IMG/VR virus record: IMGVR_UViG_3300032219_002227
Span: 96,001 to 160,000 of that record
Length of the DNA: 64,000 bases
From: a virus
Taxonomy: Duplodnaviria > Caudoviricetes
Direction: 5' to 3' (one strand)
Shown here: piece by piece, positions 7,897-31,429 of the stretch
How the letters are laid out: every line of letters begins with the position of its first letter
Numbering within the stretch: the first letter of the stretch is position 1
Translations under genes and position numbers: made by a program
The notes under the pieces: generated by a model
Told to the model about the DNA's origin: nothing
Database searches by the model: none
What the model saw: the letters and a program-made list of their open reading frames with translations, nothing else

Positions 7897-7961
7897 GGCA
7901 ATAAATAACTTAGGTAAAATTTTATAATATTTATACACATAAACACAACAAAAATAAAATC

Positions 7962-8459
7962 ATGAATATCAACGAAGTACGCAGCATTATCCGCCAAGTA
8001 ATTGCTGAAGCAATTGAAGAAAAAAAAGGCGCACCTAAAAGTAATTTTAAGTTAGTAGAACTTAAAAAAGAAATGGAAAATTTAAGGAAAATGAAAGAAT
8101 CTTTAGGTCAATTTCAAATTTCTGAAGGCGGTGAACAACAATTTGTAGCTGAATATGCTCATATGCAAAAATTTGTTACTGAATATAATAAAATTAAAGA
8201 AGCTCACGCTCGTTTATCTGAAATGTTAGATAATCAAATTAGTGCTGTAGATACTAGAATCAAAACCGAAACTGACAAGATTAAGGAAATGATGGGTCTT
8301 ATCGAAAAAGCTAAAAAACCAACTGAAAAGAAGGAAAAGAAAGCTGACAAAGATACTTCTAAAAGTAAGCATGAAAAAGGTGAATCTGAGGAAGAAGAAG
8401 AAGAACATGATGAAGAGCCTAAACCAAAGAAAAAACCAGCCGTTAAAAAAGATAAATAA
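7962..8459 (+). CDS. Coiled-coil, charged putative head-core/internal protein
   Basis: VRSIIRQVIAE N-tag; KIKEMMGLIE; K/E-rich tail; ATATTTAT upstream. Confidence 0.65.
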   Translation: MNINEVRSIIRQVIAEAIEEKKGAPKSNFKLVELKKEMENLRKMKESLGQFQISEGGEQQFVAEYAHMQKFVTEYNKIKEAHARLSEMLDNQISAVDTRIKTETDKIKEMMGLIEKAKKPTEKKEKKADKDTSKSKHEKGESEEEEEEHDEEPKPKKKPAVKKDK

Positions 8460-8848: not shown

Positions 8849-9581
8849 TTTAATTAATGAAGAAAAAATGACTCCTGCTCAAAAGAAAAAGCGCGGAGAA
8901 ATTTATGACAAGCTAACAGCAGACGGAATGTCTTCTAAAAAAGCAGGACCAATTGCTACATCAAAAGCTATGTCTGAAAAGAAAGGTATAGATAGAGATA
9001 AGGACGGTGATATAGATAGTGAGGATTGGAAAATAGGAAGGGATATTGCTATTAAAGCAAAATCTAAAAAAGTAAATGAAGAAAATATTCCAGCCCCATT
9101 AGCTTCTCTTTATGACTTAGTTGAAAAATTAATAGCACAAGATATTACTAAAGATGAAATATTACGAATAGTAAATTTTGCTACTGCTAAGTTAAATGAA
9201 GGATCAGACCATGAAGTATCAATGGCGGTATCTAGTTTAGAAGCAATTGCAAAAGCAATTATAGAATTAAGACAAAAACTAGGTAATGTAGAACGTAATA
9301 TTCCAGGCTGGATTCAAGATCACGTTGCTAAAGCAGAAAATTATATTGAACAAGCAGCTCAAGGATTTCATGAACTAAAAGATGATAAAATGAACGAAAC
9401 TAAAAGAATGCAACAATTAGCAGGTATGTTAAATGAAAATGATCAACCTGGTATCTATTTTGATATTGAACAAGATTTAATGCACGGTGAATTTGAAAGT
9501 ATTGATGATCAAGTTAACTATCTTCAAGATGTTATTAATTTCTGCAATGATAAAATAGCTGAATTACAAGCTAATGGATAA
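8832..9581 (+). CDS. Multi-module putative internal protein (GTG start)
   Basis: MIKLIDLINE tag; EF-hand-like DRDKDGDIDSED; DHEVSMA...IPGWIQDHVAKA module; RMQQLAGMLNE. Confidence 0.65.
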   Translation: MIKLIDLINEEKMTPAQKKKRGEIYDKLTADGMSSKKAGPIATSKAMSEKKGIDRDKDGDIDSEDWKIGRDIAIKAKSKKVNEENIPAPLASLYDLVEKLIAQDITKDEILRIVNFATAKLNEGSDHEVSMAVSSLEAIAKAIIELRQKLGNVERNIPGWIQDHVAKAENYIEQAAQGFHELKDDKMNETKRMQQLAGMLNENDQPGIYFDIEQDLMHGEFESIDDQVNYLQDVINFCNDKIAELQANG

Positions 9582-10399: not shown

Positions 10400-11158
10400 A
10401 TGAGTCAGATTAAAAGGTTATTTTTTGATATAGAAACAAGTCCAAATATTGGACTTTTTTGGACTGCTGGCTACAGACAAACAATCAGTCCTGATAATAT
10501 CATTAAAGAAAGAGCAATTATTTGTATTTGTTATAAATGGGCAAGTAATGATAAAGTATATTCATTACAGTGGAATGAAAATCAAGACGATAAACAACTA
10601 TTAGAAAAATTCATAGAAATAGCTAATGAAGCTGATGAATTAATAGGTCACAATGGTGACAGATTTGATCTACCATGGATTAGAACTCGTTGTTTATATC
10701 ATAGAATTCCTGTATTTCCTAATTATACTACTTTAGATACATTAAAGTATGCCCGTTCTAAATTTAAATTTAATAGTAATAAATTAGATTACATTGCTAA
10801 ATTTTTAGGTATAGGACAGAAGACACATACCGGATATGATTTGTGGAAAAGAGTAGTACTTGAAAAGGATATAGAAGCATTAGATTATATGGTTGAATAC
10901 TGTAAAAATGATGTTGTATTACTTGAACAAGTATATAATGAAATGTCTACTTATGTTCCTGCTAAAACACACCATGGTGTAATAGCAGGCGGTGAAAAAC
11001 ATTCATGTCCTAACTGCAGTTCAGAAGATATGAAATTTTCACAGAGACGTTATACTGCATCTGGTACTCCAAGAATTCAATTACAATGTAAAAAATGTCA
11101 TACTTATCATACAATTTCAAATAAAATATATGTATCTATGACAGATAAAAACGACTAA
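10400..11158 (+). CDS. RNase H-like (DEDD/PolB-exonuclease-type) nuclease with C-terminal Zn ribbon
   Basis: FFDIETSP, GHNGDRFDLPWI, YCKNDV motifs; CPNC...CKKC. Confidence 0.85.
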   Translation: MSQIKRLFFDIETSPNIGLFWTAGYRQTISPDNIIKERAIICICYKWASNDKVYSLQWNENQDDKQLLEKFIEIANEADELIGHNGDRFDLPWIRTRCLYHRIPVFPNYTTLDTLKYARSKFKFNSNKLDYIAKFLGIGQKTHTGYDLWKRVVLEKDIEALDYMVEYCKNDVVLLEQVYNEMSTYVPAKTHHGVIAGGEKHSCPNCSSEDMKFSQRRYTASGTPRIQLQCKKCHTYHTISNKIYVSMTDKND

Positions 11159-11175: not shown

Positions 11176-11568
11176 ATGGAAATGATAAATGAAATTAAAA
11201 GGATGCAAAAATTGGCTGGTATTCTTAAAGAACAAGACGAACCAGAACAAGAAGAAGTAGCAACTGAAGAAGCTCCAACTCCTGATCTTCCAGCTGGAAA
11301 TATTACTCAGGAACAAGCCGCTCAATTAATTAGAGATACAAAAGGTAAATTCTTTACTGTAACATTCATTAAAAAAGATGGCAGTACACGTGTAATGAAT
11401 GCTCGTTTAGGTGTTAAAGCCTACTTAAAGGGGGGTGAACTTCCATATAATCCAACAGCTAAAGGACTAATTCCAGTATATGATATGAAAGCGCGTGACT
11501 ATAGAATGGTGAATATCAATACTATTAAAAATCTAAAGATTGGTAATAACGAATATAACGTATCCTAA
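11176..11568 (+). CDS. SH3-barrel/WYL-like protein behind an RMQKLAGILKE tag and acidic linker
   Basis: FFTVTFIKKDGSTRVMNA...VYDM...YRMVN is a WYL/SH3 (DUF2693-like) pattern. Confidence 0.7.
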   Translation: MEMINEIKRMQKLAGILKEQDEPEQEEVATEEAPTPDLPAGNITQEQAAQLIRDTKGKFFTVTFIKKDGSTRVMNARLGVKAYLKGGELPYNPTAKGLIPVYDMKARDYRMVNINTIKNLKIGNNEYNVS

Positions 11569-19444: not shown

Positions 19445-19683
19445 TGTCAAAACTAAATAAAATAATTGAACGCTATAAAGATGATGCAGATCATTTTGAT
19501 GATTTTGATGATTCAATTATAGGTGAAGTACTAGATAAATTAAATGAATCTTTATCAGTGTTAAAAGAAAACGATAACGCTGGCTATGCCCGTGCTATAA
19601 AAGAATATACAAATTCTCTTAATGGGGAGCGTAAAGAAGTTATGGAAGATTTTATAGAATATTCTAAACATTATAATAAATGA
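19444..19683 (+). CDS. Small acidic helical protein, possible internal protein
   Basis: MSKLNKIIE start; LNE and LKE sites. Confidence 0.55.
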   Translation: MSKLNKIIERYKDDADHFDDFDDSIIGEVLDKLNESLSVLKENDNAGYARAIKEYTNSLNGERKEVMEDFIEYSKHYNK

Positions 19684-20630
19684 AAAAATTACAACTCCAA
19701 AATTTAATTAAAGAAGCAATCCAAGAAATATTAGGTGAAAATTTAAAACAAGATGCTAGACAAAAGAAGTTAGTAGCTATTGATGCTGAAATTAAAGCAC
19801 TCCAAGGTGATAAAGTAAATATTACTACTGGCAAAGACGATATAGGAGAATCTCGTGGTCCTATTAAATTCAAACTAGCTGATGATTACGAAAATAAAAT
19901 ATCAGAATTACCATACAATAGCTCTGAAAAGAGAATGAGATGGGTCAACGGTATTGTTGATTATGTAGAGGAAAATGGAGCAGACGATATTACCACTATC
20001 GCTAGAAAAAAGTTTAATGTTCCTCAACCACGCATAGCTGACTATGCTAGGGATATGATTAGACTTGGAATTCTAGTTCCTGAAACTGAAGGAGTAACAC
20101 CTCAATTTATGAGACCTAGAGGTGAAGAAGACGAAGAATCACAAGCAGACCTAGGCCCAGAAGGTGGTATAGAAGGAAATATGAGTGATGAAGAAGTTGA
20201 TGCTTCATTTGCAAAAACAATGGCTAGTCAAAATGATGACTTTATTGATCTTCAAGCTACTCAAAGAGCAGCAGGCAGTAGACAATCTGCAGCTAAGACT
20301 TCTTCTATGTCAGATGAAGAACGTAAAGCTTGGATGCGTTATCAAGACTTAGAAACACGCTTAAGAGGAGTTGCCAGTAACTTAAATAGAGGATCTCGTA
20401 GTAAAAATAAACCAAGTGGTGATGATATTCAAGGTGGAGGTTCGCTATATAATATACCAAGTTTGAAAGATCTTCAAACCAGGATAAAAGATGAAATGAC
20501 AGCTATTGCTTCTAAATTTCCATCAGTTGTAAAAGGTGATAAAGATTCTAAAAATGAAGCTTCAAAAGCAGAACCATTAGATGAATGGACAATTAATAGA
20601 ATGCAGTATTATGCTGGTATTAAAAAATAA
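19680..20630 (+). CDS. Doubly tagged putative internal protein with central winged-HTH-like domain
   Basis: LQNLIKEAIQEILGE N-tag; ITTIARKKFNVPQPRIADYARDMIRLGIL; C-terminal LDEWTINRMQYYAGIKK. Confidence 0.65.
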   Translation: MKKLQLQNLIKEAIQEILGENLKQDARQKKLVAIDAEIKALQGDKVNITTGKDDIGESRGPIKFKLADDYENKISELPYNSSEKRMRWVNGIVDYVEENGADDITTIARKKFNVPQPRIADYARDMIRLGILVPETEGVTPQFMRPRGEEDEESQADLGPEGGIEGNMSDEEVDASFAKTMASQNDDFIDLQATQRAAGSRQSAAKTSSMSDEERKAWMRYQDLETRLRGVASNLNRGSRSKNKPSGDDIQGGGSLYNIPSLKDLQTRIKDEMTAIASKFPSVVKGDKDSKNEASKAEPLDEWTINRMQYYAGIKK

Positions 20631-21370: not shown

Positions 21371-22951
21371 ATGAGTCAAACGCAAATCAAGGAAATAATT
21401 AAGCAGGAATATTTAAAGTGTGCAGTTGATCCTGTACATTTTTTCCGCAAATATTGTTATATTAACCATCCAATCAAAGGAAGAGTATTATTTCATCTAT
21501 ATCCATTTCAGCAAGAAGTATTAAATGATTTTAGAAATAATCGTTTTTGTATTATTAATAAATCAAGACAGTTAGGTATATCAACGTTAGTAGCTGGTTT
21601 TTCTTTATGGATGATGTTATTTCAAAAAGATAAAACAATACTTTGTATTGCAACAAAGCAAGAAACAGCTAGAGGAATGGTTGAGAAAGTACAATTTATG
21701 TATGAAAATCTTCCTAGCTGGTTAAAAGGTAATCAAAAACCTATATCAAATAACAAATTATCATTTAAGTTAGCTAATAATTCTCAAATAGTAGCTACAT
21801 CAGCAGCATCAGATGCAGGTAGATCTTACGCAGTATCTTTACTATTGATGGATGAGGCTGCATTTATTGAAGGTGTAGATAGAATCTATACGAGTATTAA
21901 ACCAACAATTGCAACCGGTGGAGGAGCAATTGCATTATCTTCTCCAAACGGTGTAGGTAATTGGTTTCATAGAATGTATTCTGAAGCTAAAATAGGTAAA
22001 AATGACTTTAAAGCAATTAAGTTGCCTTGGAGTCTCCACCCAGACCGAGATGAAGCTTGGGAGCAAAGAGAAAGAGCAAACATGTCACCTAGAGAATTCG
22101 CTCAGGAGTATGATTGTGACTTTTTAGGTTCTGGTAATTCGGTAGTTGAACCTGATTTATTATTATTCTATGAAGAAACTTATATTCAAGAGCCTGTGGA
22201 ACGTCGTTTTATGGGCGGTGATTTTTGGATATGGCAGTATCCTGATTATAGTAAGCAGTATCTTGTTTGCGCTGACGTTGCTCGTGGTGATGGCAGCGAT
22301 TATTCTGCATTTCACGTTATTGATGCAACAACGTGTGAGCAAGTGGCTGAGTACAAGTCCCAAGTGGATACTCGTACTTATGGAAATATGCTGGTATCTG
22401 TTGCTGCTGAGTATAATAATGCCTTACTGGTTGTGGAAAACGCAAACGTTGGGTGGGATGTTGTTAATACCATAATAGAAAAAAATTATCCTAAATTATA
22501 TTATTCACCTCGTGCTTATGGTGAAATGAGTATGGATAAATGGTTAGATAAAATGGATAAAGAACAAACAGTTCCTGGTTTTACTACATCAACTAAAACA
22601 AGACCTCTTGTTATCTCTAAAATGGAGTCGTATATTCGAGAGAAGGCTTTTATATTTCGTTCTAAACGTTTATTAGAGGAATTACGAGTATTTATCTGGC
22701 AAAACGGAAAAGCACAAGCACAGAATGGATATAACGATGATTTAGTAATGTCATTAGGAATTGGTTTATTTACTAGAGATACAGCAATGAAATTCTACGA
22801 ACAAGGAATGGATTTATCTAGAAATATGCTAGCTAGTGTTACTAAAACAGGCTATGTAGCCGGTCCAACTGCACCTTCAGGAATTTTAAATCCATATATG
22901 ATCAATGATGGACATGGGGGGTTTGAAGACATATCGTGGGTGCTAAGTTAA
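21371..22951 (+). CDS. terL: Terminase large subunit (T4 gp17-like)
   Basis: KSRQLGIST Walker A, LLMDEAAF Walker B, SSPNG, QEYDC.F, nuclease ADVARG and DDLVM. Confidence 0.95.
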   Translation: MSQTQIKEIIKQEYLKCAVDPVHFFRKYCYINHPIKGRVLFHLYPFQQEVLNDFRNNRFCIINKSRQLGISTLVAGFSLWMMLFQKDKTILCIATKQETARGMVEKVQFMYENLPSWLKGNQKPISNNKLSFKLANNSQIVATSAASDAGRSYAVSLLLMDEAAFIEGVDRIYTSIKPTIATGGGAIALSSPNGVGNWFHRMYSEAKIGKNDFKAIKLPWSLHPDRDEAWEQRERANMSPREFAQEYDCDFLGSGNSVVEPDLLLFYEETYIQEPVERRFMGGDFWIWQYPDYSKQYLVCADVARGDGSDYSAFHVIDATTCEQVAEYKSQVDTRTYGNMLVSVAAEYNNALLVVENANVGWDVVNTIIEKNYPKLYYSPRAYGEMSMDKWLDKMDKEQTVPGFTTSTKTRPLVISKMESYIREKAFIFRSKRLLEELRVFIWQNGKAQAQNGYNDDLVMSLGIGLFTRDTAMKFYEQGMDLSRNMLASVTKTGYVAGPTAPSGILNPYMINDGHGGFEDISWVLS

Positions 22952-22982: not shown

Positions 22983-24875
22983 ATGGCAGAAAATCAACCA
23001 AATTTTGGTTTATTTGATAGGCTAAGAAGATTATTCAGTACAGACGTTATCATTAGAAATGTTGGTGGAAATCAACTTAGAACAGTTGATATCGATAAAA
23101 TTCAAGCCTACGGCAACGTAAAGACCAACGCTCTTATAGATAGATTTACAAAACTTCATCGCTATGGCGCTAACATGCCATATAACCCAACGATGAACTA
23201 CCAAACACTTCGTATCCAGTTATACACTGATTATGAAGCAATGGATACAGAATCAATCATAGCATCTACTCTTGATATTATTTCCGATGAATCTACTTTA
23301 AAGAACGAAGCTGGAGAAGTATTACAAATTAAATCTTCAGATGAAAATGTTCAGCGTATTCTCTATAATTTATTCTATGATGTATTAAACATCGAGTTTA
23401 ACTTATGGTTATGGATTCGCAATATGTGTAAATATGGTGATTTTTACTTACATCTTGATATTGCTGATAAATTTGGAGTATATAATGTAGTACCATTATC
23501 TGTTTATGATATGGTTCGTGAAGAAGGAGTTGATCCTAAAAATCCATCTTTAGTACGTTTTAGAATTGATCCAATGGTAATTTCAAACGGCGGGATGAAT
23601 TATGCTGATTATGAAAAAGATAAAGAAGGTAAAATTACATTCGATAACTACGAAATAGCTCACTTCAGGTTATTAACTGATGCTAACTATCTCCCATATG
23701 GTAGATCATATATTGAACCAGCACGTAAAACTTATAAACAATACGTACTAATGAAAGACGCGATGTTGTTACATCGCATCACTCGTGCTCCAGAAAAGCG
23801 CGTATTTACTGTAAACGTAGGTAATATTCCACCAAATGAAGTTGACGGATTCATGCAGAAAATAATGCAGAAGATGAAGAAAACTCCATATATTGATCAA
23901 CAAACTGGTGAGTATAATTTGCGTTATAATATGATGAACATGATGGAGGATTATTATCTTCCAACTCGTGGCAATGATACCGCAACTAAGATTGATACAA
24001 TTAAAGGTCTTGAATATAATGCAATTGAAGACGTAGCATTTTTACGTGATGAAATGTTAGCTGCGCTTAAAGTACCTAAAGCATTTTTTGGATTTGAAAA
24101 AGATTTGCAAGGTAAAGCTACATTAGCTGCTGAAGATATTCGCTTTGCTCGTACAGTAGAACGCATTCAGCGTATTGCTATTTCTGAATTATATAAAATA
24201 GCACTTGTGCATTTATATGTTCAAGGATATGATGGTGAAGCATTAGCTAATTTTGAACTTTCATTAACTACTCCATCTGTTATATACGAACAAGAGAAAG
24301 TAGCGTTATGGAAAGAAAAAATTGACTTAGCTAAATCAGTACAAGATACTAACCTAATGCCTTCAGATTGGATTTATCATAATGTATTCCAATTTAGTGA
24401 AGACCAATATGATGAAATGCGTGACTTAGTAATTGAAGATAAAAAACGCGTATTCCGTTTAGCTCAAATTGAAAACGAAGGTAACGACCCAGCTAAAACT
24501 GGTAGATCATTTGGTACACCACACGATTTAGCAGCATTGTATGGTAAAGGGAGAGCAGGAATGGATACAAATAGTCCTGTCCCTGCAGGATATGATGAAA
24601 AGAAACCAGGTCGTCCTAAAGAAAAAGCATCTATTATTGGAACTCAACGCGATCCATTAGGTAAAGATAGAACAGGTAAAATAGCAAATAATACTACATC
24701 AACACCAAACGAAACTGGAGAAGGTACACCTAAAGGGGGTTCACCTCTTGCATTAACTGAGTTGAAAAAACATAAAGGACTATTTAAAGGATTTAATGTA
24801 GTTCGTAAAGAATTATCTATAGAACCTATTCAGGAATCGTCATTATTAGACGAAAAAAATATCAAGAACATATAA
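22983..24875 (+). CDS. Portal protein (T4 gp20-like)
   Basis: YGRSYIEPARK, RITRAPEKRVF.VNVGNIPP, EDYYLP.RG, ALKVPK, EDIRFAR; follows terminase. Confidence 0.95.
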   Translation: MAENQPNFGLFDRLRRLFSTDVIIRNVGGNQLRTVDIDKIQAYGNVKTNALIDRFTKLHRYGANMPYNPTMNYQTLRIQLYTDYEAMDTESIIASTLDIISDESTLKNEAGEVLQIKSSDENVQRILYNLFYDVLNIEFNLWLWIRNMCKYGDFYLHLDIADKFGVYNVVPLSVYDMVREEGVDPKNPSLVRFRIDPMVISNGGMNYADYEKDKEGKITFDNYEIAHFRLLTDANYLPYGRSYIEPARKTYKQYVLMKDAMLLHRITRAPEKRVFTVNVGNIPPNEVDGFMQKIMQKMKKTPYIDQQTGEYNLRYNMMNMMEDYYLPTRGNDTATKIDTIKGLEYNAIEDVAFLRDEMLAALKVPKAFFGFEKDLQGKATLAAEDIRFARTVERIQRIAISELYKIALVHLYVQGYDGEALANFELSLTTPSVIYEQEKVALWKEKIDLAKSVQDTNLMPSDWIYHNVFQFSEDQYDEMRDLVIEDKKRVFRLAQIENEGNDPAKTGRSFGTPHDLAALYGKGRAGMDTNSPVPAGYDEKKPGRPKEKASIIGTQRDPLGKDRTGKIANNTTSTPNETGEGTPKGGSPLALTELKKHKGLFKGFNVVRKELSIEPIQESSLLDEKNIKNI

Positions 24876-26405: not shown

Positions 26406-27938
26406 ATGAAAAGTATAGCAAACCAATATCGTGATTTGAAAGAAGGCAAAATGTCACAATTTAATTTTATGCGTAATTTACGTATGACTATGCCTCAATA
26501 TATTACTAATGTAACTTCATTTAAAGATGCTGTTAAAATTCTTAAAAATAAGTCTATTTTAAATGAAGCTGACGTTGCAGAAATGCGTTATCAATCCTCA
26601 GGCGGAGTAGATAATCCAGGAAGAGAAGATCAATCTAATTATGACATGGATAGTTTTATTAGAGAGCTGGATAGAGAACTAGAATACTATGAAAGAGAAT
26701 ATCCGGGTCTTGTAGCTTTTGTTGATAAATTAGGTAATAATGATGAAACAAATCCTAAATATCTCGATATTACAGATAGATACTTTGACGACCCAGCAGG
26801 CGCTGCTGCTGAATTTATTACCTTATTTAATAAACAAAACATTAATGAATTAGGCCCTGACGCAGAGAGAATGGCTGGTAACCCTGAAGAAGAGGCAGAA
26901 TATAGAGCAACTGCTATTAGAAAAAAAAGTAATGATGATGAAGATGATGAATTAGATGCTATTATTAAACAAATGGAAGATGAATTAGATAGTCCTGACA
27001 AATATAAAAATCAAGACTCTGAAGATGCATTAGGTGAGGATTTAAAAACTGTTAAAGAACCAAATCCAAATGCTGGTAAATGGAGATTGATGAGTATTGA
27101 TGGAAAAAGGGCATTAGCTAATAATTTTTTTGATTCTGAAAAAGATGCAAAAGAATACGCTAGAAAAAATATAAGAACAGATTATAAAACCGTAAAATTA
27201 AAGGATGAAAGATCTGTATACAGAAATATAGATGAAAGTAGAAAGAAAAAAGAACCAAAAAAAGAATTACATCCAAATCAAATTCATCCACAAGAATTAA
27301 GGATGGGTATTAAGGTTGAATTAGAACATACCGCTGATTTAGATAAAGCAAGAAAAATTGCTTTAGATCATTTAGCTGAAAATCCATTCTACTATACAGC
27401 TTTAAAATTAGCAGGTATTGAATCACCCTCAGCTCCTAAAGTTAAAGCACCTGTAGAGAAAAAGGCTAAAAAGAAAAAAGAAACAGCTGAATTAGTCGAT
27501 AAGGATAACCAAATGCAGAAGGTAAAAATGCCTAAAATTGTTAAAGAAGTTAGGTATAATACTTTAAAAGAACCAAGTCCTTTTATGAAAGAAGTTGAAG
27601 ACTTTATTGATAATACTCTTGGTTTAAATGTTATGTCTAAAAAACTAGAATTACAAGATACTCAAGATCCAAATAGAGTACTTTTAAGATATCAATACTG
27701 GGAAAAACTTCCTAAAGAAGCTCTTGATATTTTTAAAAACTCAGATAAGTTTAAAGTTGAAGAAGATATAGATGTAGAAGAAGAAAAAGCAGATTCATAT
27801 CTTTACTTTATAGAACCTAAATCTTCTTTATCTGAAAATCATTCTCGTCTTATGGCTAAATTAGAAGCATTAGTACGTGAAGCTATTAATGAATATTATG
27901 ATGGGCGTGATAATTTAGATGCCGAAAACGAATACTAA
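26406..27938 (+). CDS. Multi-module head-internal protein with a DUF5661-like domain
   Basis: ELRMGIKVELEH...KIALDHLAENPFYYT; modules separated by LNE/INE/IDE/VKE/LSE; C-terminal LEALVREAINE. Confidence 0.65.
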   Translation: MKSIANQYRDLKEGKMSQFNFMRNLRMTMPQYITNVTSFKDAVKILKNKSILNEADVAEMRYQSSGGVDNPGREDQSNYDMDSFIRELDRELEYYEREYPGLVAFVDKLGNNDETNPKYLDITDRYFDDPAGAAAEFITLFNKQNINELGPDAERMAGNPEEEAEYRATAIRKKSNDDEDDELDAIIKQMEDELDSPDKYKNQDSEDALGEDLKTVKEPNPNAGKWRLMSIDGKRALANNFFDSEKDAKEYARKNIRTDYKTVKLKDERSVYRNIDESRKKKEPKKELHPNQIHPQELRMGIKVELEHTADLDKARKIALDHLAENPFYYTALKLAGIESPSAPKVKAPVEKKAKKKKETAELVDKDNQMQKVKMPKIVKEVRYNTLKEPSPFMKEVEDFIDNTLGLNVMSKKLELQDTQDPNRVLLRYQYWEKLPKEALDIFKNSDKFKVEEDIDVEEEKADSYLYFIEPKSSLSENHSRLMAKLEALVREAINEYYDGRDNLDAENEY

Positions 27939-27939
27939 T

Positions 27940-28548
27940 ATGAAATTATTACTGATTGACCATACCCCATTTCAGCAAGCAAACCTTACCTTATTAGAAG
28001 GTAAAGGTAATAAAGATGGTTTAGTTACTCTTGTAGGTAAACTGCAAGCAGCTAACCAAGAAAATGGTAATAATCGTAAATATCCTTATAAAACTCTTAA
28101 GCGTGAAGTAGATAAATATATAGATGGTCCTATCAAAACACGTACTGCTTTAGGAGAATTAGATCATCCTGAAGCATCTGTTGTAAATTTAGCAAATACT
28201 TCTCACATTGTTACTAGTGTTTGGTGGGATGGAAATAATGTTATGGGTAAAATTCAATTATTACCTACACCTGCTGGCAACATTGCTAAAGCATTAGTAA
28301 TGGCTGGTATTCCACTTGGAATATCTTCACGCGGTATGGGTAGTGTTAAACAAATTGGAGAGGCAGTTGAAGTACAAGAAGATTTTGAATTATTATGTTG
28401 GGATCTAGTATCGGTACCATCAACACCAATGGCATACATGCAATTAGCTGAATCAAAGAAATTTAGACCCACAAAAGATTATAGTAAAGTAAATAGTTTA
28501 GTAACTGAAATTATTTGTAACCAAACAGGAGTTTGTCCTATTTGTTAA
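27940..28548 (+). CDS. Prohead core protease (T4 gp21-like)
   Basis: NGNNRKYP, GELDHP, GISSRGMGS, DLVSVPST; ATG 27940 preferred over 27919 because it avoids the overlap. Confidence 0.93.
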   Translation: MKLLLIDHTPFQQANLTLLEGKGNKDGLVTLVGKLQAANQENGNNRKYPYKTLKREVDKYIDGPIKTRTALGELDHPEASVVNLANTSHIVTSVWWDGNNVMGKIQLLPTPAGNIAKALVMAGIPLGISSRGMGSVKQIGEAVEVQEDFELLCWDLVSVPSTPMAYMQLAESKKFRPTKDYSKVNSLVTEIICNQTGVCPIC

Positions 28549-28695: not shown

Positions 28696-29793
28696 ATGTC
28701 AAACAAAGACTTATTCAAAGAGGCTATCGCCGACGCTAAAGCTGTCCGCGAAGCTGCGTTAGCAAACGCAAAAGCTGCTCTTGAAGAAGCTTTAGCTCCA
28801 GCAATTCAAAATATGATTTCTAGTAAATTACAAGAAATTGATGAAGATTTGGATGAAGTTGAAGATCTTGAAGAAGTAGATTTTATCTCAGCTAATGACA
28901 AAAGGAATGATTCTGATTTTATCAGAAAAAGAGCTATTGATGCAAGCCAAATGTCAGAAGGCGAAGAAGACCTAGAAGAAGATTTCGATTTATCTGAAAT
29001 TTTAGCTGAATTAAGTGAAGAAAATGAACTTGAAGAAGCTAAAGATAAGGATGAAAAGAAAGAAAATCTCTACGAAGATGAAGATGAAGAATCTGAATTA
29101 GAAACTGTAGGTGATTTAACCGTTGATGAATTTAAAGATGAAATCAGAGACATGATCAAAGATATTATCTCATCAGAAATGGGTGGTGGCGAAATGGCTG
29201 CTGCTGATGATGTAGTAGATGATGCTGAAGAAATGGCTGTTGATTTTAGCGATGAAACCGGCGGTGATGACTTACGTCAAGACACAGATGATGCTATAGC
29301 AAATGCTGAAGAAGATGACGAAGAAATCAACTTAGAAGAATTACTAGCTGAACTTGATTCTTTAGACGAAGCTAATGATACTGATGAAGTATATGAAGCT
29401 AAGAAAAAGAAAAAAACACCACAAGGCGAAGATAAAGAAGAAGAGATAAAAGAAGCTCTTAACACTATCAATACCCTTCGCACTGAACTTAACGAAGTAA
29501 ACTTGCTTAATGCTAAGTTACTTTATGTTAACAAAATTTTCAAGTCTAAGAACTTGAATGAATCACAAAAACTCAAAGTAATTGCTCAATTCGACAAAGC
29601 AACTACTGCGAAAGAAGCTAAAGTTATTTATGAATCTATGAGTAGTGCTATTGCAAAATCTGCTAAAAGCACAATCAAAGAATCATTAGGATTTGCTTCA
29701 AAAGCTGCTGGTATGGCTCCACAAAAACCAATTGTAGAAGTAAATGATACAGTTGCTAGATGGAAAATGTTAGCAGGTATTACTAAATTTTAA
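28696..29793 (+). CDS. Prohead scaffold protein (T4 gp22-like)
   Basis: LFKEAIADAKAVRE, very acidic centre with many LxE sites, LNEVNLLNAKLLY, C-terminal RWKMLAGI; immediately upstream of the capsid gene. Confidence 0.88.
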   Translation: MSNKDLFKEAIADAKAVREAALANAKAALEEALAPAIQNMISSKLQEIDEDLDEVEDLEEVDFISANDKRNDSDFIRKRAIDASQMSEGEEDLEEDFDLSEILAELSEENELEEAKDKDEKKENLYEDEDEESELETVGDLTVDEFKDEIRDMIKDIISSEMGGGEMAAADDVVDDAEEMAVDFSDETGGDDLRQDTDDAIANAEEDDEEINLEELLAELDSLDEANDTDEVYEAKKKKKTPQGEDKEEEIKEALNTINTLRTELNEVNLLNAKLLYVNKIFKSKNLNESQKLKVIAQFDKATTAKEAKVIYESMSSAIAKSAKSTIKESLGFASKAAGMAPQKPIVEVNDTVARWKMLAGITKF

Positions 29794-29824: not shown

Positions 29825-31429
29825 ATGAACGTACAACAACTCCTCGAATCATCTAACCAATATAAAGTGGTGATGGATGACGCTAAAAAGTTGTCAAACA
29901 AGTGGGCTAAATCTGGCCTTTTAGAAGGTATTAGATCTACTAATGACAAAAATACAATGGCTATTTTGCTTGAAAACCAAGCTAAGCAATTAGTAACCGA
30001 AGCTAACGTAACTGGCGGTACTAATAGTATGAATGGTGCTGGATACAATGCTGAGAACTGGGCTGGCGTAGCTTTGCCTTTAGTTCGCCGCGTATTTGGT
30101 GAAATCGCAGCTAAAGAATTCGTTAGTGTACAACCAATGAACTTACCTTCTGGTCTTGTATTCTATCTTGATTTCAAGTATGCTAATAACATCAGACCTT
30201 TCCGTTCTGGTGATTCACTTTACAGTGCTAATAACAGCACTAACGTAACTGATTTTGCTAACACCGCTTCTCTTTATGGTGCTGGTCGCTTCGGTTACTC
30301 TATCAATCAGTATACAGCTTCTGTTACTAATGCTTCTACAGGATCTGCTCAATGGTCTGATTTTAATCTTGATTCTAACTACTCTGCTTCTGCAGCTTCT
30401 AGTCAGTACAAGAAAATTTCTGTTCCATTACCTTCTAACTACGACGTAAACGCGGTTCGTGGATTTGTAATTGTTTCTGGTACAATTGCTGCTACTGATG
30501 TATTGCAAGCTTTCACTACTGTAACTAACAACACTGCTTCTTTCATTGTTACTGGTTCTTTAGTAGCTAGAGACATGTCTCCCGCCGCTGCTACTGTAAC
30601 ATTGTTCTACGATATCCAGAACACTCCTGAAAGTCGTGGTGATTTCGAAGATGGTAAAGCTAAAACAAATGCTCCTACCACTATCGATATTCCTTCTATT
30701 GACGTTCAGTTAAAATCTGAAGCTATCGTTGCTAAAACTCGTAAGTTGAAAGCACAATGGACTCCAGAATTCGCTCAAGATTTGAATGCTTATCATTCAA
30801 TCGACGCTGAAGCTGAATTAACTGGTATCCTTTCTCAATATATCTCTATGGAAATCGATCTCGAACTCCTTGATATGTTAATCCAAAACGCTTATACTGT
30901 TGATTATTGGACTGCTGTTAATAACAAGTCTATCACTTCTGCAGGTGTAACTTCTGATTTGGGTTACTACAACACTCAAGGTGGTTGGTTCCAAACTTTA
31001 GGTACTAAGTTACAGAAAGTTTCCAATATTATCCATCAGTTAACTTTACGTGGTGGCGCTAACTTCCTCGTAGTTTCTCCAACCGTAGCAACTGTATTAG
31101 AATCAATTCCAGGCTTTGCTACTGATGGTGATGGTGAGAAAATGGAATTCAACTTCGGTATCCAAAAGATTGGTCAGTTGAATAGCCGTTACAAAGTATA
31201 CAAGAACCCATACATGACTGAGAACGTAATTCTTATGGGTTACAAAGGTGCTCAGTTTCTTGAGTGTGGTGCTGTATTTGCTCCATATGTTCCATTGATC
31301 ATGACTCCACTTCTTTACGATCCTAATACCTTCACACCAAGAAAAGGTTTGATGACTAGGTACGCTAAGAAGATGATCCGTCCTGACTATTATGGTAAAG
31401 TATATGTTGCTGGTTTAAATACTCTTTAA
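29825..31429 (+). CDS. Major capsid protein (T4 gp23-like)
   Basis: LLENQ, LPLVRRV, VQPMNLPSGLVFYL, TRKLKAQWTPEFAQDL.AYH, FAPYVPL, FTPRKGLMTRY; probable maturation cut LVTE59|A. Confidence 0.97.
   Translation: MNVQQLLESSNQYKVVMDDAKKLSNKWAKSGLLEGIRSTNDKNTMAILLENQAKQLVTEANVTGGTNSMNGAGYNAENWAGVALPLVRRVFGEIAAKEFVSVQPMNLPSGLVFYLDFKYANNIRPFRSGDSLYSANNSTNVTDFANTASLYGAGRFGYSINQYTASVTNASTGSAQWSDFNLDSNYSASAASSQYKKISVPLPSNYDVNAVRGFVIVSGTIAATDVLQAFTTVTNNTASFIVTGSLVARDMSPAAATVTLFYDIQNTPESRGDFEDGKAKTNAPTTIDIPSIDVQLKSEAIVAKTRKLKAQWTPEFAQDLNAYHSIDAEAELTGILSQYISMEIDLELLDMLIQNAYTVDYWTAVNNKSITSAGVTSDLGYYNTQGGWFQTLGTKLQKVSNIIHQLTLRGGANFLVVSPTVATVLESIPGFATDGDGEKMEFNFGIQKIGQLNSRYKVYKNPYMTENVILMGYKGAQFLECGAVFAPYVPLIMTPLLYDPNTFTPRKGLMTRYAKKMIRPDYYGKVYVAGLNTL

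Follow-up and report, generated by a model that had tools for sequence, protein, structure and literature searches.

The window, the whole stretch of 64,000 nucleotides analysed here, comprises genome positions 96001-160000 of an uncultured phage of 173,246 bp, and all of its genes are on the plus strand. The head module is T4-like in its arrangement, with a large terminase gene at 21371 and a gp20-type portal gene at 22983, then the genes of an S77 protease, the scaffold and the major capsid protein (Table 1). The closest cultured relative is Flavobacterium phage vB_FspM_immuto (hereafter immuto), with Flavobacterium sp. LMO8 as its host and a capsid protein identity of 60%. More distant capsid proteins are found in Microcystis phage Mel-JY01 and the huge phage LR756508 (~50% identity) as well as in Rhodothermus phage RM378 (37%). 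IMG/VR holds at least 599 capsid genes that are related to the capsid gene of the source phage.

Table 1. Features of the head module and of the motif-bearing genes, with positions in the window
Feature	Position	Strand	Basis or description
Prohead protease, T4 gp21 type (Peptidase_S77)	27919-28548	+	Pfam E 5.9e-33; PHROG 207 E 1.5e-54
Head scaffold, gp22-like	28696-29793	+	365 aa; position between S77 protease and gp23 capsid gene
Scaffold tail peptide VNDTVARWKMLAGITKF	29740-29790 (stop to 29793)	+	Residues 349-365, directly after predicted cut site IVE348
Major capsid protein, gp23 type	29825-31429	+	Pfam Gp23 E 2.7e-77
Predicted capsid propeptide, residues 1-59	29825-30001	+	Cut-site alignment; candidate receptor
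o8832, 249 aa	8832-9581	+	Conserved HEVSMA...GWIQDH domain and 63-residue extension from Met187
Tag inside o8832, MNETKRMQQLAGMLNE, residues 187-202	9390-9437	+	Cut site LNE202
Tagged protein o11176, 130 aa	11176-11568	+	Tag MEMINEIKRMQKLAGILKE up to the predicted cut, acidic Pro-rich linker, WYL_2 Sm-like beta-barrel
N-terminal tag of o11176, residues 1-19	11176-11232	+	Ends in predicted cut site LKE19
o19680, 316 aa	19680-20630	+	Tail-bearing, mostly helical; two genes upstream of large terminase
Variant tail WTINRMQYYAGIKK	20586-20627	+	After predicted cut site LDE302

The scaffold and its C-terminal tail

The scaffold protein is acidic and mostly of low complexity, with a conserved C-terminal third, and its C-terminal 110 residues match the products of the genes at the same position in immuto, Mel-JY01 and LR756508. 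Searches of Pfam and PHROG gave no match above threshold, so that the protein is called gp22-like by its position and composition only. The T4 prohead protease gp21 cuts after L/I-x-E (PMC9026906), and we infer the same specificity for the S77 protease of the source phage. Sites of the form [ILV]xE are abundant in the scaffold (23 compared to 11.4 expected). The capsid protein has five of them, at residues 8, 34, 50 and 59 and just one in its other 475 residues. The site at VTE59/A is the aligned counterpart of the T4 gp23 maturation site LTE65/A, and the N-terminus thus delimited, a predicted propeptide of 59 residues, belongs to the best-conserved parts of the protein.

A first-pass annotation of the sequence had placed a scaffold-tail peptide at 29740-29793. 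This is borne out as the end of the 365-aa open reading frame, which terminates in IVE, the predicted cut, VNDTVARWKMLAGITKF and the stop codon. Corresponding tails, each running to the stop codon, are SRWQKLAGIIK in immuto, ERMKKLAGIVK in Mel-JY01, SRMQKLADIS in LR756508 and RIKRLAGL in RM378. The tail is kept in ~60 of the 71 scaffold-capsid pairs extracted from IMG/VR, the remainder being mis-paired reading frames. Alignment of 49 distinct pairs gave the consensus IKE-SLGFASKAAGVAPKKxIVE-xNDxxxRMQKLA[G/N]IxK-stop, in which R30, L34 and A35 are invariant, the IVE site is positioned six residues ahead of the tail arginine, and a second conserved block, GFASKAAG, adjoins the tail. The RM378 tail belongs to Rm378p142 (L428:1574-2422), an unannotated acidic protein encoded upstream of the capsid gene and ending in LLDLERIKRLAGL, and the tail motif is thus conserved through the whole far-T4 lineage, down to 37% capsid identity. 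An alignment-based prediction of the complex between the capsid protein and the 40-residue scaffold tail, run without controls, returned a score of 0.01, which argues neither for nor against an interaction.

Copies of the motif in the source genome

A six-frame scan of the whole genome with the core pattern [KR][MW]xx[LY]AG[ILMV] retrieved five copies, all of them in plus-strand coding frames; for this pattern, which was chosen after the data had been seen, the composition-based expectation is 0.026 matches in 55,219 residues (Poisson P ~1e-10). Besides the scaffold tail, the copies reported in the first-pass annotation for the N-terminus of o11176 (RMQKLAGI, residues 9-16) and the C-terminus of o19680 (RMQYYAGI, residues 307-314, two residues before the stop) are present as described. 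The copy reported for o8832 likewise exists (RMQQLAGM, residues 192-199), but its description as internal does not hold in the same way, the carrier being probably a fused or nested N-tagged reading frame. The fifth copy is located outside the window, at genome position 64185, and is N-terminal (MKKQLNEIKRMQQLAGLLKE). A loose copy had further been proposed in o7962. The peptide in question, KIKEMMGLIE, has none of the R, A and G of the motif and was rejected as a member; it is conserved in just this form in one relative, and o7962 itself had nothing above threshold in Pfam and PHROG. Directly upstream of the protease gene, window positions 26406-27938 encode a 510-aa protein with a DUF5661 domain ending LKLAGIE, a partial look-alike of the motif without R-[M/W]; because it has 16 [ILV]xE sites, this protein may be another core protein.

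The barrel of o11176 is a match to PF10902 (E 3.9e-8). The AF2 model of the protein comprises a helix (residues 2-19, pLDDT only 53-59), a disordered segment (20-40) and the barrel (41-129). The PHROG 2267 profile begins at residue 42, and tag and linker are therefore seen as an add-on to the barrel. The [ILV]xE sites of the protein occur only at residues 6 and 19, both within the tag, and the L081 orthologue keeps the tag as RRWQQLAGILKE. A gene for a DNA-polymerase exonuclease subunit (10400-11158; PHROG 403, E 4.8e-62) stands between o8832 and o11176, showing that the stretch mixes replication genes with putative head-cargo genes. The location of o11176 next to this gene, outside the head module, counts against a role of the protein in the head.

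The orthologues of o8832 in the relatives G002 and G003 carry no tag. The G002 orthologue stops seven residues past FHEL and the G003 orthologue has a different, untagged C-terminus beyond it; the extension in the source genome starts four residues past FHEL. Comparison of o8832 with Pfam and PHROG gave nothing above threshold. Because the extension is missing from the orthologues and has its own Met together with a standard tag, the C-terminal 63 residues (9390-9581) look like a separate small N-tagged gene, either fused in frame or nested.

We read o19680 as another scaffold-like protein of the core, one whose tail is a variant of the scaffold tail. The 54 matches to RMQYYAGI in IMG/VR are, every one, two residues from the end of a reading frame, which has 300-411 residues where complete (some are cut by contig ends). 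Across 31 members of the o19680 family, none of the eight residues of RMQYYAGI varies; [L/V/M]-[D/N]-E is placed four to five residues upstream of them, and the tail is kept in the G004 orthologue at 32% identity. In the AF2 model long helices predominate, with a small alpha/beta domain spanning residues 64-134; the model ends in a helix (302-311) and a GIKK coil (pLDDT ~76). Searches with this model (Foldseek pdb and VIA-align wide) retrieved nothing beyond helical hairpins of a generic kind (best Z 8.0) and pointed to no family, and Pfam and PHROG gave nothing above threshold for the sequence. A second common N-terminal peptide, hydrophobic-hydrophobic-[R/K]-x-A-[I/V]-x-E-[A/I]-[I/L]-x-E, begins at residue 9 in o7962 (7962-8021), in o19680 (19680-19739) and in a 107-aa reading frame at genome position 82076. 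It has 40 matches in 2.7 Mb of related loci; 36 of them are N-terminal, and 30 of these 36 are members of the o19680 family. It may be a second head-targeting leader.

Occurrence of the motif across the phage clade

A degenerate DNA pattern for KRMQxLAG retrieved at least 120 loci from IMG/VR, to which six complete genomes were added. Nearly all matches are situated either at the N-terminus of a reading frame of 70-220 residues or at the extreme C-terminus of a scaffold of 320-470 residues. The 167 distinct copies, counted among the matches listed and the six genomes, divide into 111 N-terminal tags, 48 scaffold tails and 8 others; among the matches listed, the N-terminal copies lie 2-16 residues from the Met of small reading frames. 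In immuto, two unrelated small proteins begin with MKKQILSEQF[K/R]RMQxLAGIITE. Five complete relatives (immuto and G001-G004) each combine a scaffold tail of this type with one to five tags, and the source genome has two or three tags. The first-pass annotation had considered the tag to be position-independent, which is at odds with this distribution (111 of 167 N-terminal and 48 of 167 scaffold tails in the matches listed).

Sharing of the peptide far exceeds chance and is specific to the present phage clade. When five complete or large relatives were scanned, the pattern occurred on the coding strand only, and the reversed pattern gave zero matches. The invariant L, A and G are encoded by freely varying codons, indicating that selection acts on the peptide. 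In cellular genomes (596 Gb) there were scattered internal matches, mostly in GC-rich unrelated proteins, and no N-terminal tag with a cut site; the sole true scaffold tail in this collection was on a mis-binned phage contig. In L033, L067 and L098, all from IMG/VR, matches to KRMQALAGL belong to large proteins and lack a cut site, and these were disregarded as being unrelated or due to chance. Their segments of 187-686 residues have ...GFTxTGIDxSGxKRMQALAG[LF] ~24 residues from the start and represent either another family with the same core or a chance occurrence. A tblastn search of cultured phages with the 25-residue tag, too short a query, gave no match. Papers containing the motif (as RMQQLAG, RMQKLAG, MQQLAGI or MQKLAGI) did not turn up in the literature searched, nor did a targeting sequence described for this clade (CTS searched together with Flavobacterium, cyanophage or metagenomic) or virion proteomics for immuto or Mel-JY01.

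Anatomy of tags and tails

The consensus of the N-terminal tag is MKKQLNEIKRMQQLAGIIKE. Aligned on the arginine, the tags read M-K-K-Q-[I/L]-N-E-[I/F/A]-K-R-M-Q-x-L-A-G-[I/L]-[I/L]-x-E and the tails I-V-E-x-N-D-x-[V/I]-x-R-[M/W]-Q-x-L-A-[G/N]-I-[I/K]-K-stop. They are the same from position -2 to +8, giving hydrophobic-x-R-M-Q-x-L-A-G-I-I as their common core. The tags keep G where many scaffold tails of the same contig have N (LANI), so that tags and tails are not strictly co-varying, a point against the explanation preferred below.

Among the matches listed, 102 of the 111 tags have [ILV]xE within 0-3 residues after the motif, compared to a background of 6%, and 45 of the 48 tails have it up to 12 residues upstream, typically exactly six before the arginine. 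The cut motif is thus on opposite sides of the core in tags and tails, in each case between anchor and body, as would fit an anchor that is later cut off. Such placement is not what a docking site (exosite) of the protease with a fixed geometry would give. It was claimed in the first-pass annotation that the tag is distinct from T4 N-terminal targeting; the [ILV]xE following 102 of the 111 tags in the matches listed is, to the contrary, the T4 layout.

The tagged proteins

The 106 full-length tagged proteins among the matches listed fall into 87 BLASTP clusters, and the set of tagged genes turns over fast between close relatives. Pfam matches were obtained for 5 of 100 proteins scanned, including WYL_2 twice (o11176 being one) and DUF6926 once. 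A further one of these five matches identifies a tagged protein as an anti-CBASS 2H phosphoesterase of the Acb1 type (L059:4266-4826, plus strand; 29.1 bits compared to a cut-off of 27), which suggests that some relatives may carry an Acb1-type counter-defence enzyme in the head. The contig concerned is 3300021962_000936 of IMG/VR, and the protein begins with MENQEFKRMQKLAGLIVE. Genes for the protease, the terminase or the portal block lie no further than 1.5 kb from around 30 of 104 tag genes in the matches listed, and several tag genes are placed directly between protease and scaffold. The tagged bodies are mostly acidic (median pI 4.5), and this counts against their being cargo: the internal proteins of T4 are basic, and acidic proteins sit less easily among packed DNA.

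Avoidance of cut sites was evaluated on the bodies of 104 tagged proteins, with the expectation taken from shuffles within each protein. Among the matches listed, [IL]xE occurs 132 times in these bodies compared to 174.9 times expected (ratio 0.75, z -3.6), whereas the look-alike [IL]xD is enriched in them (1.32). In untagged reading frames of the same loci [IL]xE stands at 1.30 (z +8), and in the scaffold at twice expectation. The tagged proteins therefore appear to be under selection against being cut, which is sensible only if they meet the prohead protease and should survive it.

A sequence box, ATATTTAT, is strongly strand-biased in the genome (58 forward and 13 reverse) and is located upstream of nearly all structural operons, for example at 7926, 18964, 21358, 22954 and 28576 of the window and at genome position 64152. 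In the relatives, it precedes 44% of tag genes compared to 24% of control reading frames. Since the box is also found before non-structural genes, late expression of the tag genes is not proven by it.

Discussion

As judged from sequence, the last ten residues of the putative scaffold recur on the ends of many unrelated small proteins in the source phage and in hundreds of aquatic relatives. We consider it probable that the peptide is a removable anchor, serving as an address for head loading, with binding, cleavage, packaging and injection as the presumed stages of its use. The module hydrophobic-x-R-[M/W]-Q-x-L-A-G-[I/L]-[I/L] would form a short helix by which a protein is anchored within the prohead during assembly. 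It would do so from the extreme C-terminus of the scaffold and, as the variant RMQYYAGIKK, from that of o19680; in the Flavobacterium-phage subclade, it would have been copied onto the N-termini of fast-changing small and mostly acidic proteins. After closure of the shell, cleavage by the prohead protease would release each body from its anchor. Scaffold fragments would then exit, while the cargo bodies, owing to their few cut sites, would survive, remain in the head and presumably be delivered together with the DNA.

The earlier proposal that unrelated proteins mimic the scaffold C-terminus gains support from the sharing of the peptide and from selection at the peptide level. The further proposal that the scaffold is the original is also likely, the tail being the older form (RM378, Mel-JY01 and LR756508). 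In Mel-JY01 and LR756508, both of which were checked, the motif is on the scaffold only and there are no tags bearing it, and tags are restricted to the Flavobacterium-phage subclade, with capsids at least 55% identical to that of the source phage. With the tail extending out to RM378 and the tags confined to one subclade, the tags are probably copies of the scaffold tail.

As a guess drawn by analogy with phage 80alpha, the anchor could bind the capsid protein, and within it perhaps the strongly conserved propeptide of 59 residues; a receptor in the scaffold core may apply just as well. In a rival explanation built on the latter, the anchor binds the scaffold core by tail-to-scaffold or tail-to-tail contact, so that the tagged proteins would join the core and not the inner surface of the capsid. 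The T4 precedent speaks for it, as the targeting sequence sends proteins into the core and the internal proteins co-purify with gp22 (PMC9026906). In addition, the N-terminus of T4 gp22 (MLKEQLIAE) resembles the IPII/IPIII tag (MKTYQEFIAE), and the conserved GFASKAAG block beside the scaffold tail could take part. The solved scaffold C-termini known to us (80alpha and P22), however, contact the capsid protein (PMC5644958). The present data fit either receptor, and we regard this explanation as rather unlikely, if far from negligible.

The tagged proteins could alternatively be expendable parts of assembly or of the core, degraded or expelled like the scaffold and not delivered to the host. They share acidity with the scaffold, and o19680, o7962 and o25766 combine a helical build with many cut sites. 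The N-tagged bodies, however, are depleted in cut sites, opposite to the scaffold; their 87 clusters in 106 proteins among the matches listed, as well as their turnover, are a misfit with conserved assembly roles, and one of them is an Acb1-type anti-defence enzyme. The probability left for such a disposable role is small. Least of all do we credit a docking motif with no relation to the head (for some other factor of phage or host, such as a chaperonin, the protease as exosite or a replication protein) or the by-product of a conserved gene-start DNA cassette, for while some tag genes sit among replication genes and T4-type phages are known for small swappable genes with conserved starts, the motif closes the scaffold in all relatives as far as RM378, the peptide is conserved and the DNA is not, the cut site changes sides between tags and tails, the cargo bodies avoid cut sites, and 596 Gb of cellular genomes contained no copy in tag form.

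Returning to the removable anchor, it is possible, and proposed here tentatively, that the scaffold's own capsid-binding tail was made into a portable address, such that an N-terminal ...KRMQxLAG[IL][IL]xE would read out all proteins which are loaded into the head and injected. If so, the set spans hundreds of families of no assigned role, the Acb1-type anti-CBASS enzyme included, and would constitute a ready catalogue of the first-strike counter-defence proteins of a large clade of aquatic Bacteroidota phages. It would also imply that a cargo-loading signal can evolve by copying of a scaffold terminus. The tag would offer a route, by sequence only, to listing the likely injected proteins of a large and mostly uncultured phage clade, and a cleavable address of ~20 residues could serve to load proteins into phage heads in Bacteroidota systems.

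The T4 targeting sequence has been used for decades and, to our knowledge, what it binds is still unclear; the identity of tag and scaffold tail in the phages considered here names a concrete candidate for the binding partner. In T4, the CTS is found on the internal proteins IPI-IPIII and Alt and is removed by the gp21 prohead protease (PMC9026906, PMC3012670); the internal proteins are diverse and the targeting sequence is their sole common feature (PMC3012670). Both systems involve a short N-terminal peptide that ends in L/I-x-E and is borne by unrelated, fast-evolving small proteins, and they agree further in their prohead protease (S77, gp21 type), scaffold (gp22-like) and capsid protein (gp23 type), the last with a homologous propeptide cut site. 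Distinct from T4, the tag is unlike MKTYQEFIAE in sequence, has roughly double its length, and has a core identical to the C-terminal tail of the scaffold; the predicted cargo, moreover, is mostly acidic, where that of T4 is basic. That T4 gene 22 (L128:118-927) begins with MLKEQLIAE and the IPII/IPIII tags (T4 65689-66415) with MKTYQEFIAE hints, if weakly, that a resemblance of cargo tags to a scaffold terminus might be general, T4 included, the likeness being partly just the protease motif.

In phage 80alpha, some 16 residues at the C-terminus of the scaffold fold into an amphipathic helix with a hook whose end is RIIK, and these bind the N-arm of the capsid protein (PMC5644958). The CpmB protein of SaPI1 copies this tail, uses the same site and resizes the capsid (PMC5644958; PDB 6B0X, 6B23). 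The scaffold tail ends in I-I-K in both cases (RIIK in 80alpha, G-I-I-K here), and in both an unrelated protein carries the same tail. The mimic from SaPI1 is, however, a parasite's alternative scaffold, whereas the mimics here are encoded by the phage itself, carry the tag mostly at the N-terminus, are spread over hundreds of families and are apparently set up for being cut loose. Binding to the capsid N-arm was shown for 80alpha and would, for the tail described here, be a prediction.

Herpesviruses provide another analogy. Their protease UL26 and scaffold UL26.5 share a C-terminal capsid-binding tail by way of in-frame nested genes; UL26 enters the procapsid by this tail, which is later removed by the maturation protease. 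The common feature is a non-scaffold protein bearing the scaffold tail peptide with cleavage between the two, as is predicted here. Unlike the herpesvirus tail, the peptide of the present phages is an independent module that unrelated genes encode, in most cases at the opposite protein terminus. Encapsulins, finally, use a short terminal peptide to send varied cargo inside a shell of the HK97 fold (PMC8346489, PMC8802124). The use of such a peptide as an address to the interior of a shell appears to be shared; but the cargo-loading peptides of encapsulins are unrelated in sequence, are uncleaved, are usually C-terminal and have no scaffold to mimic.
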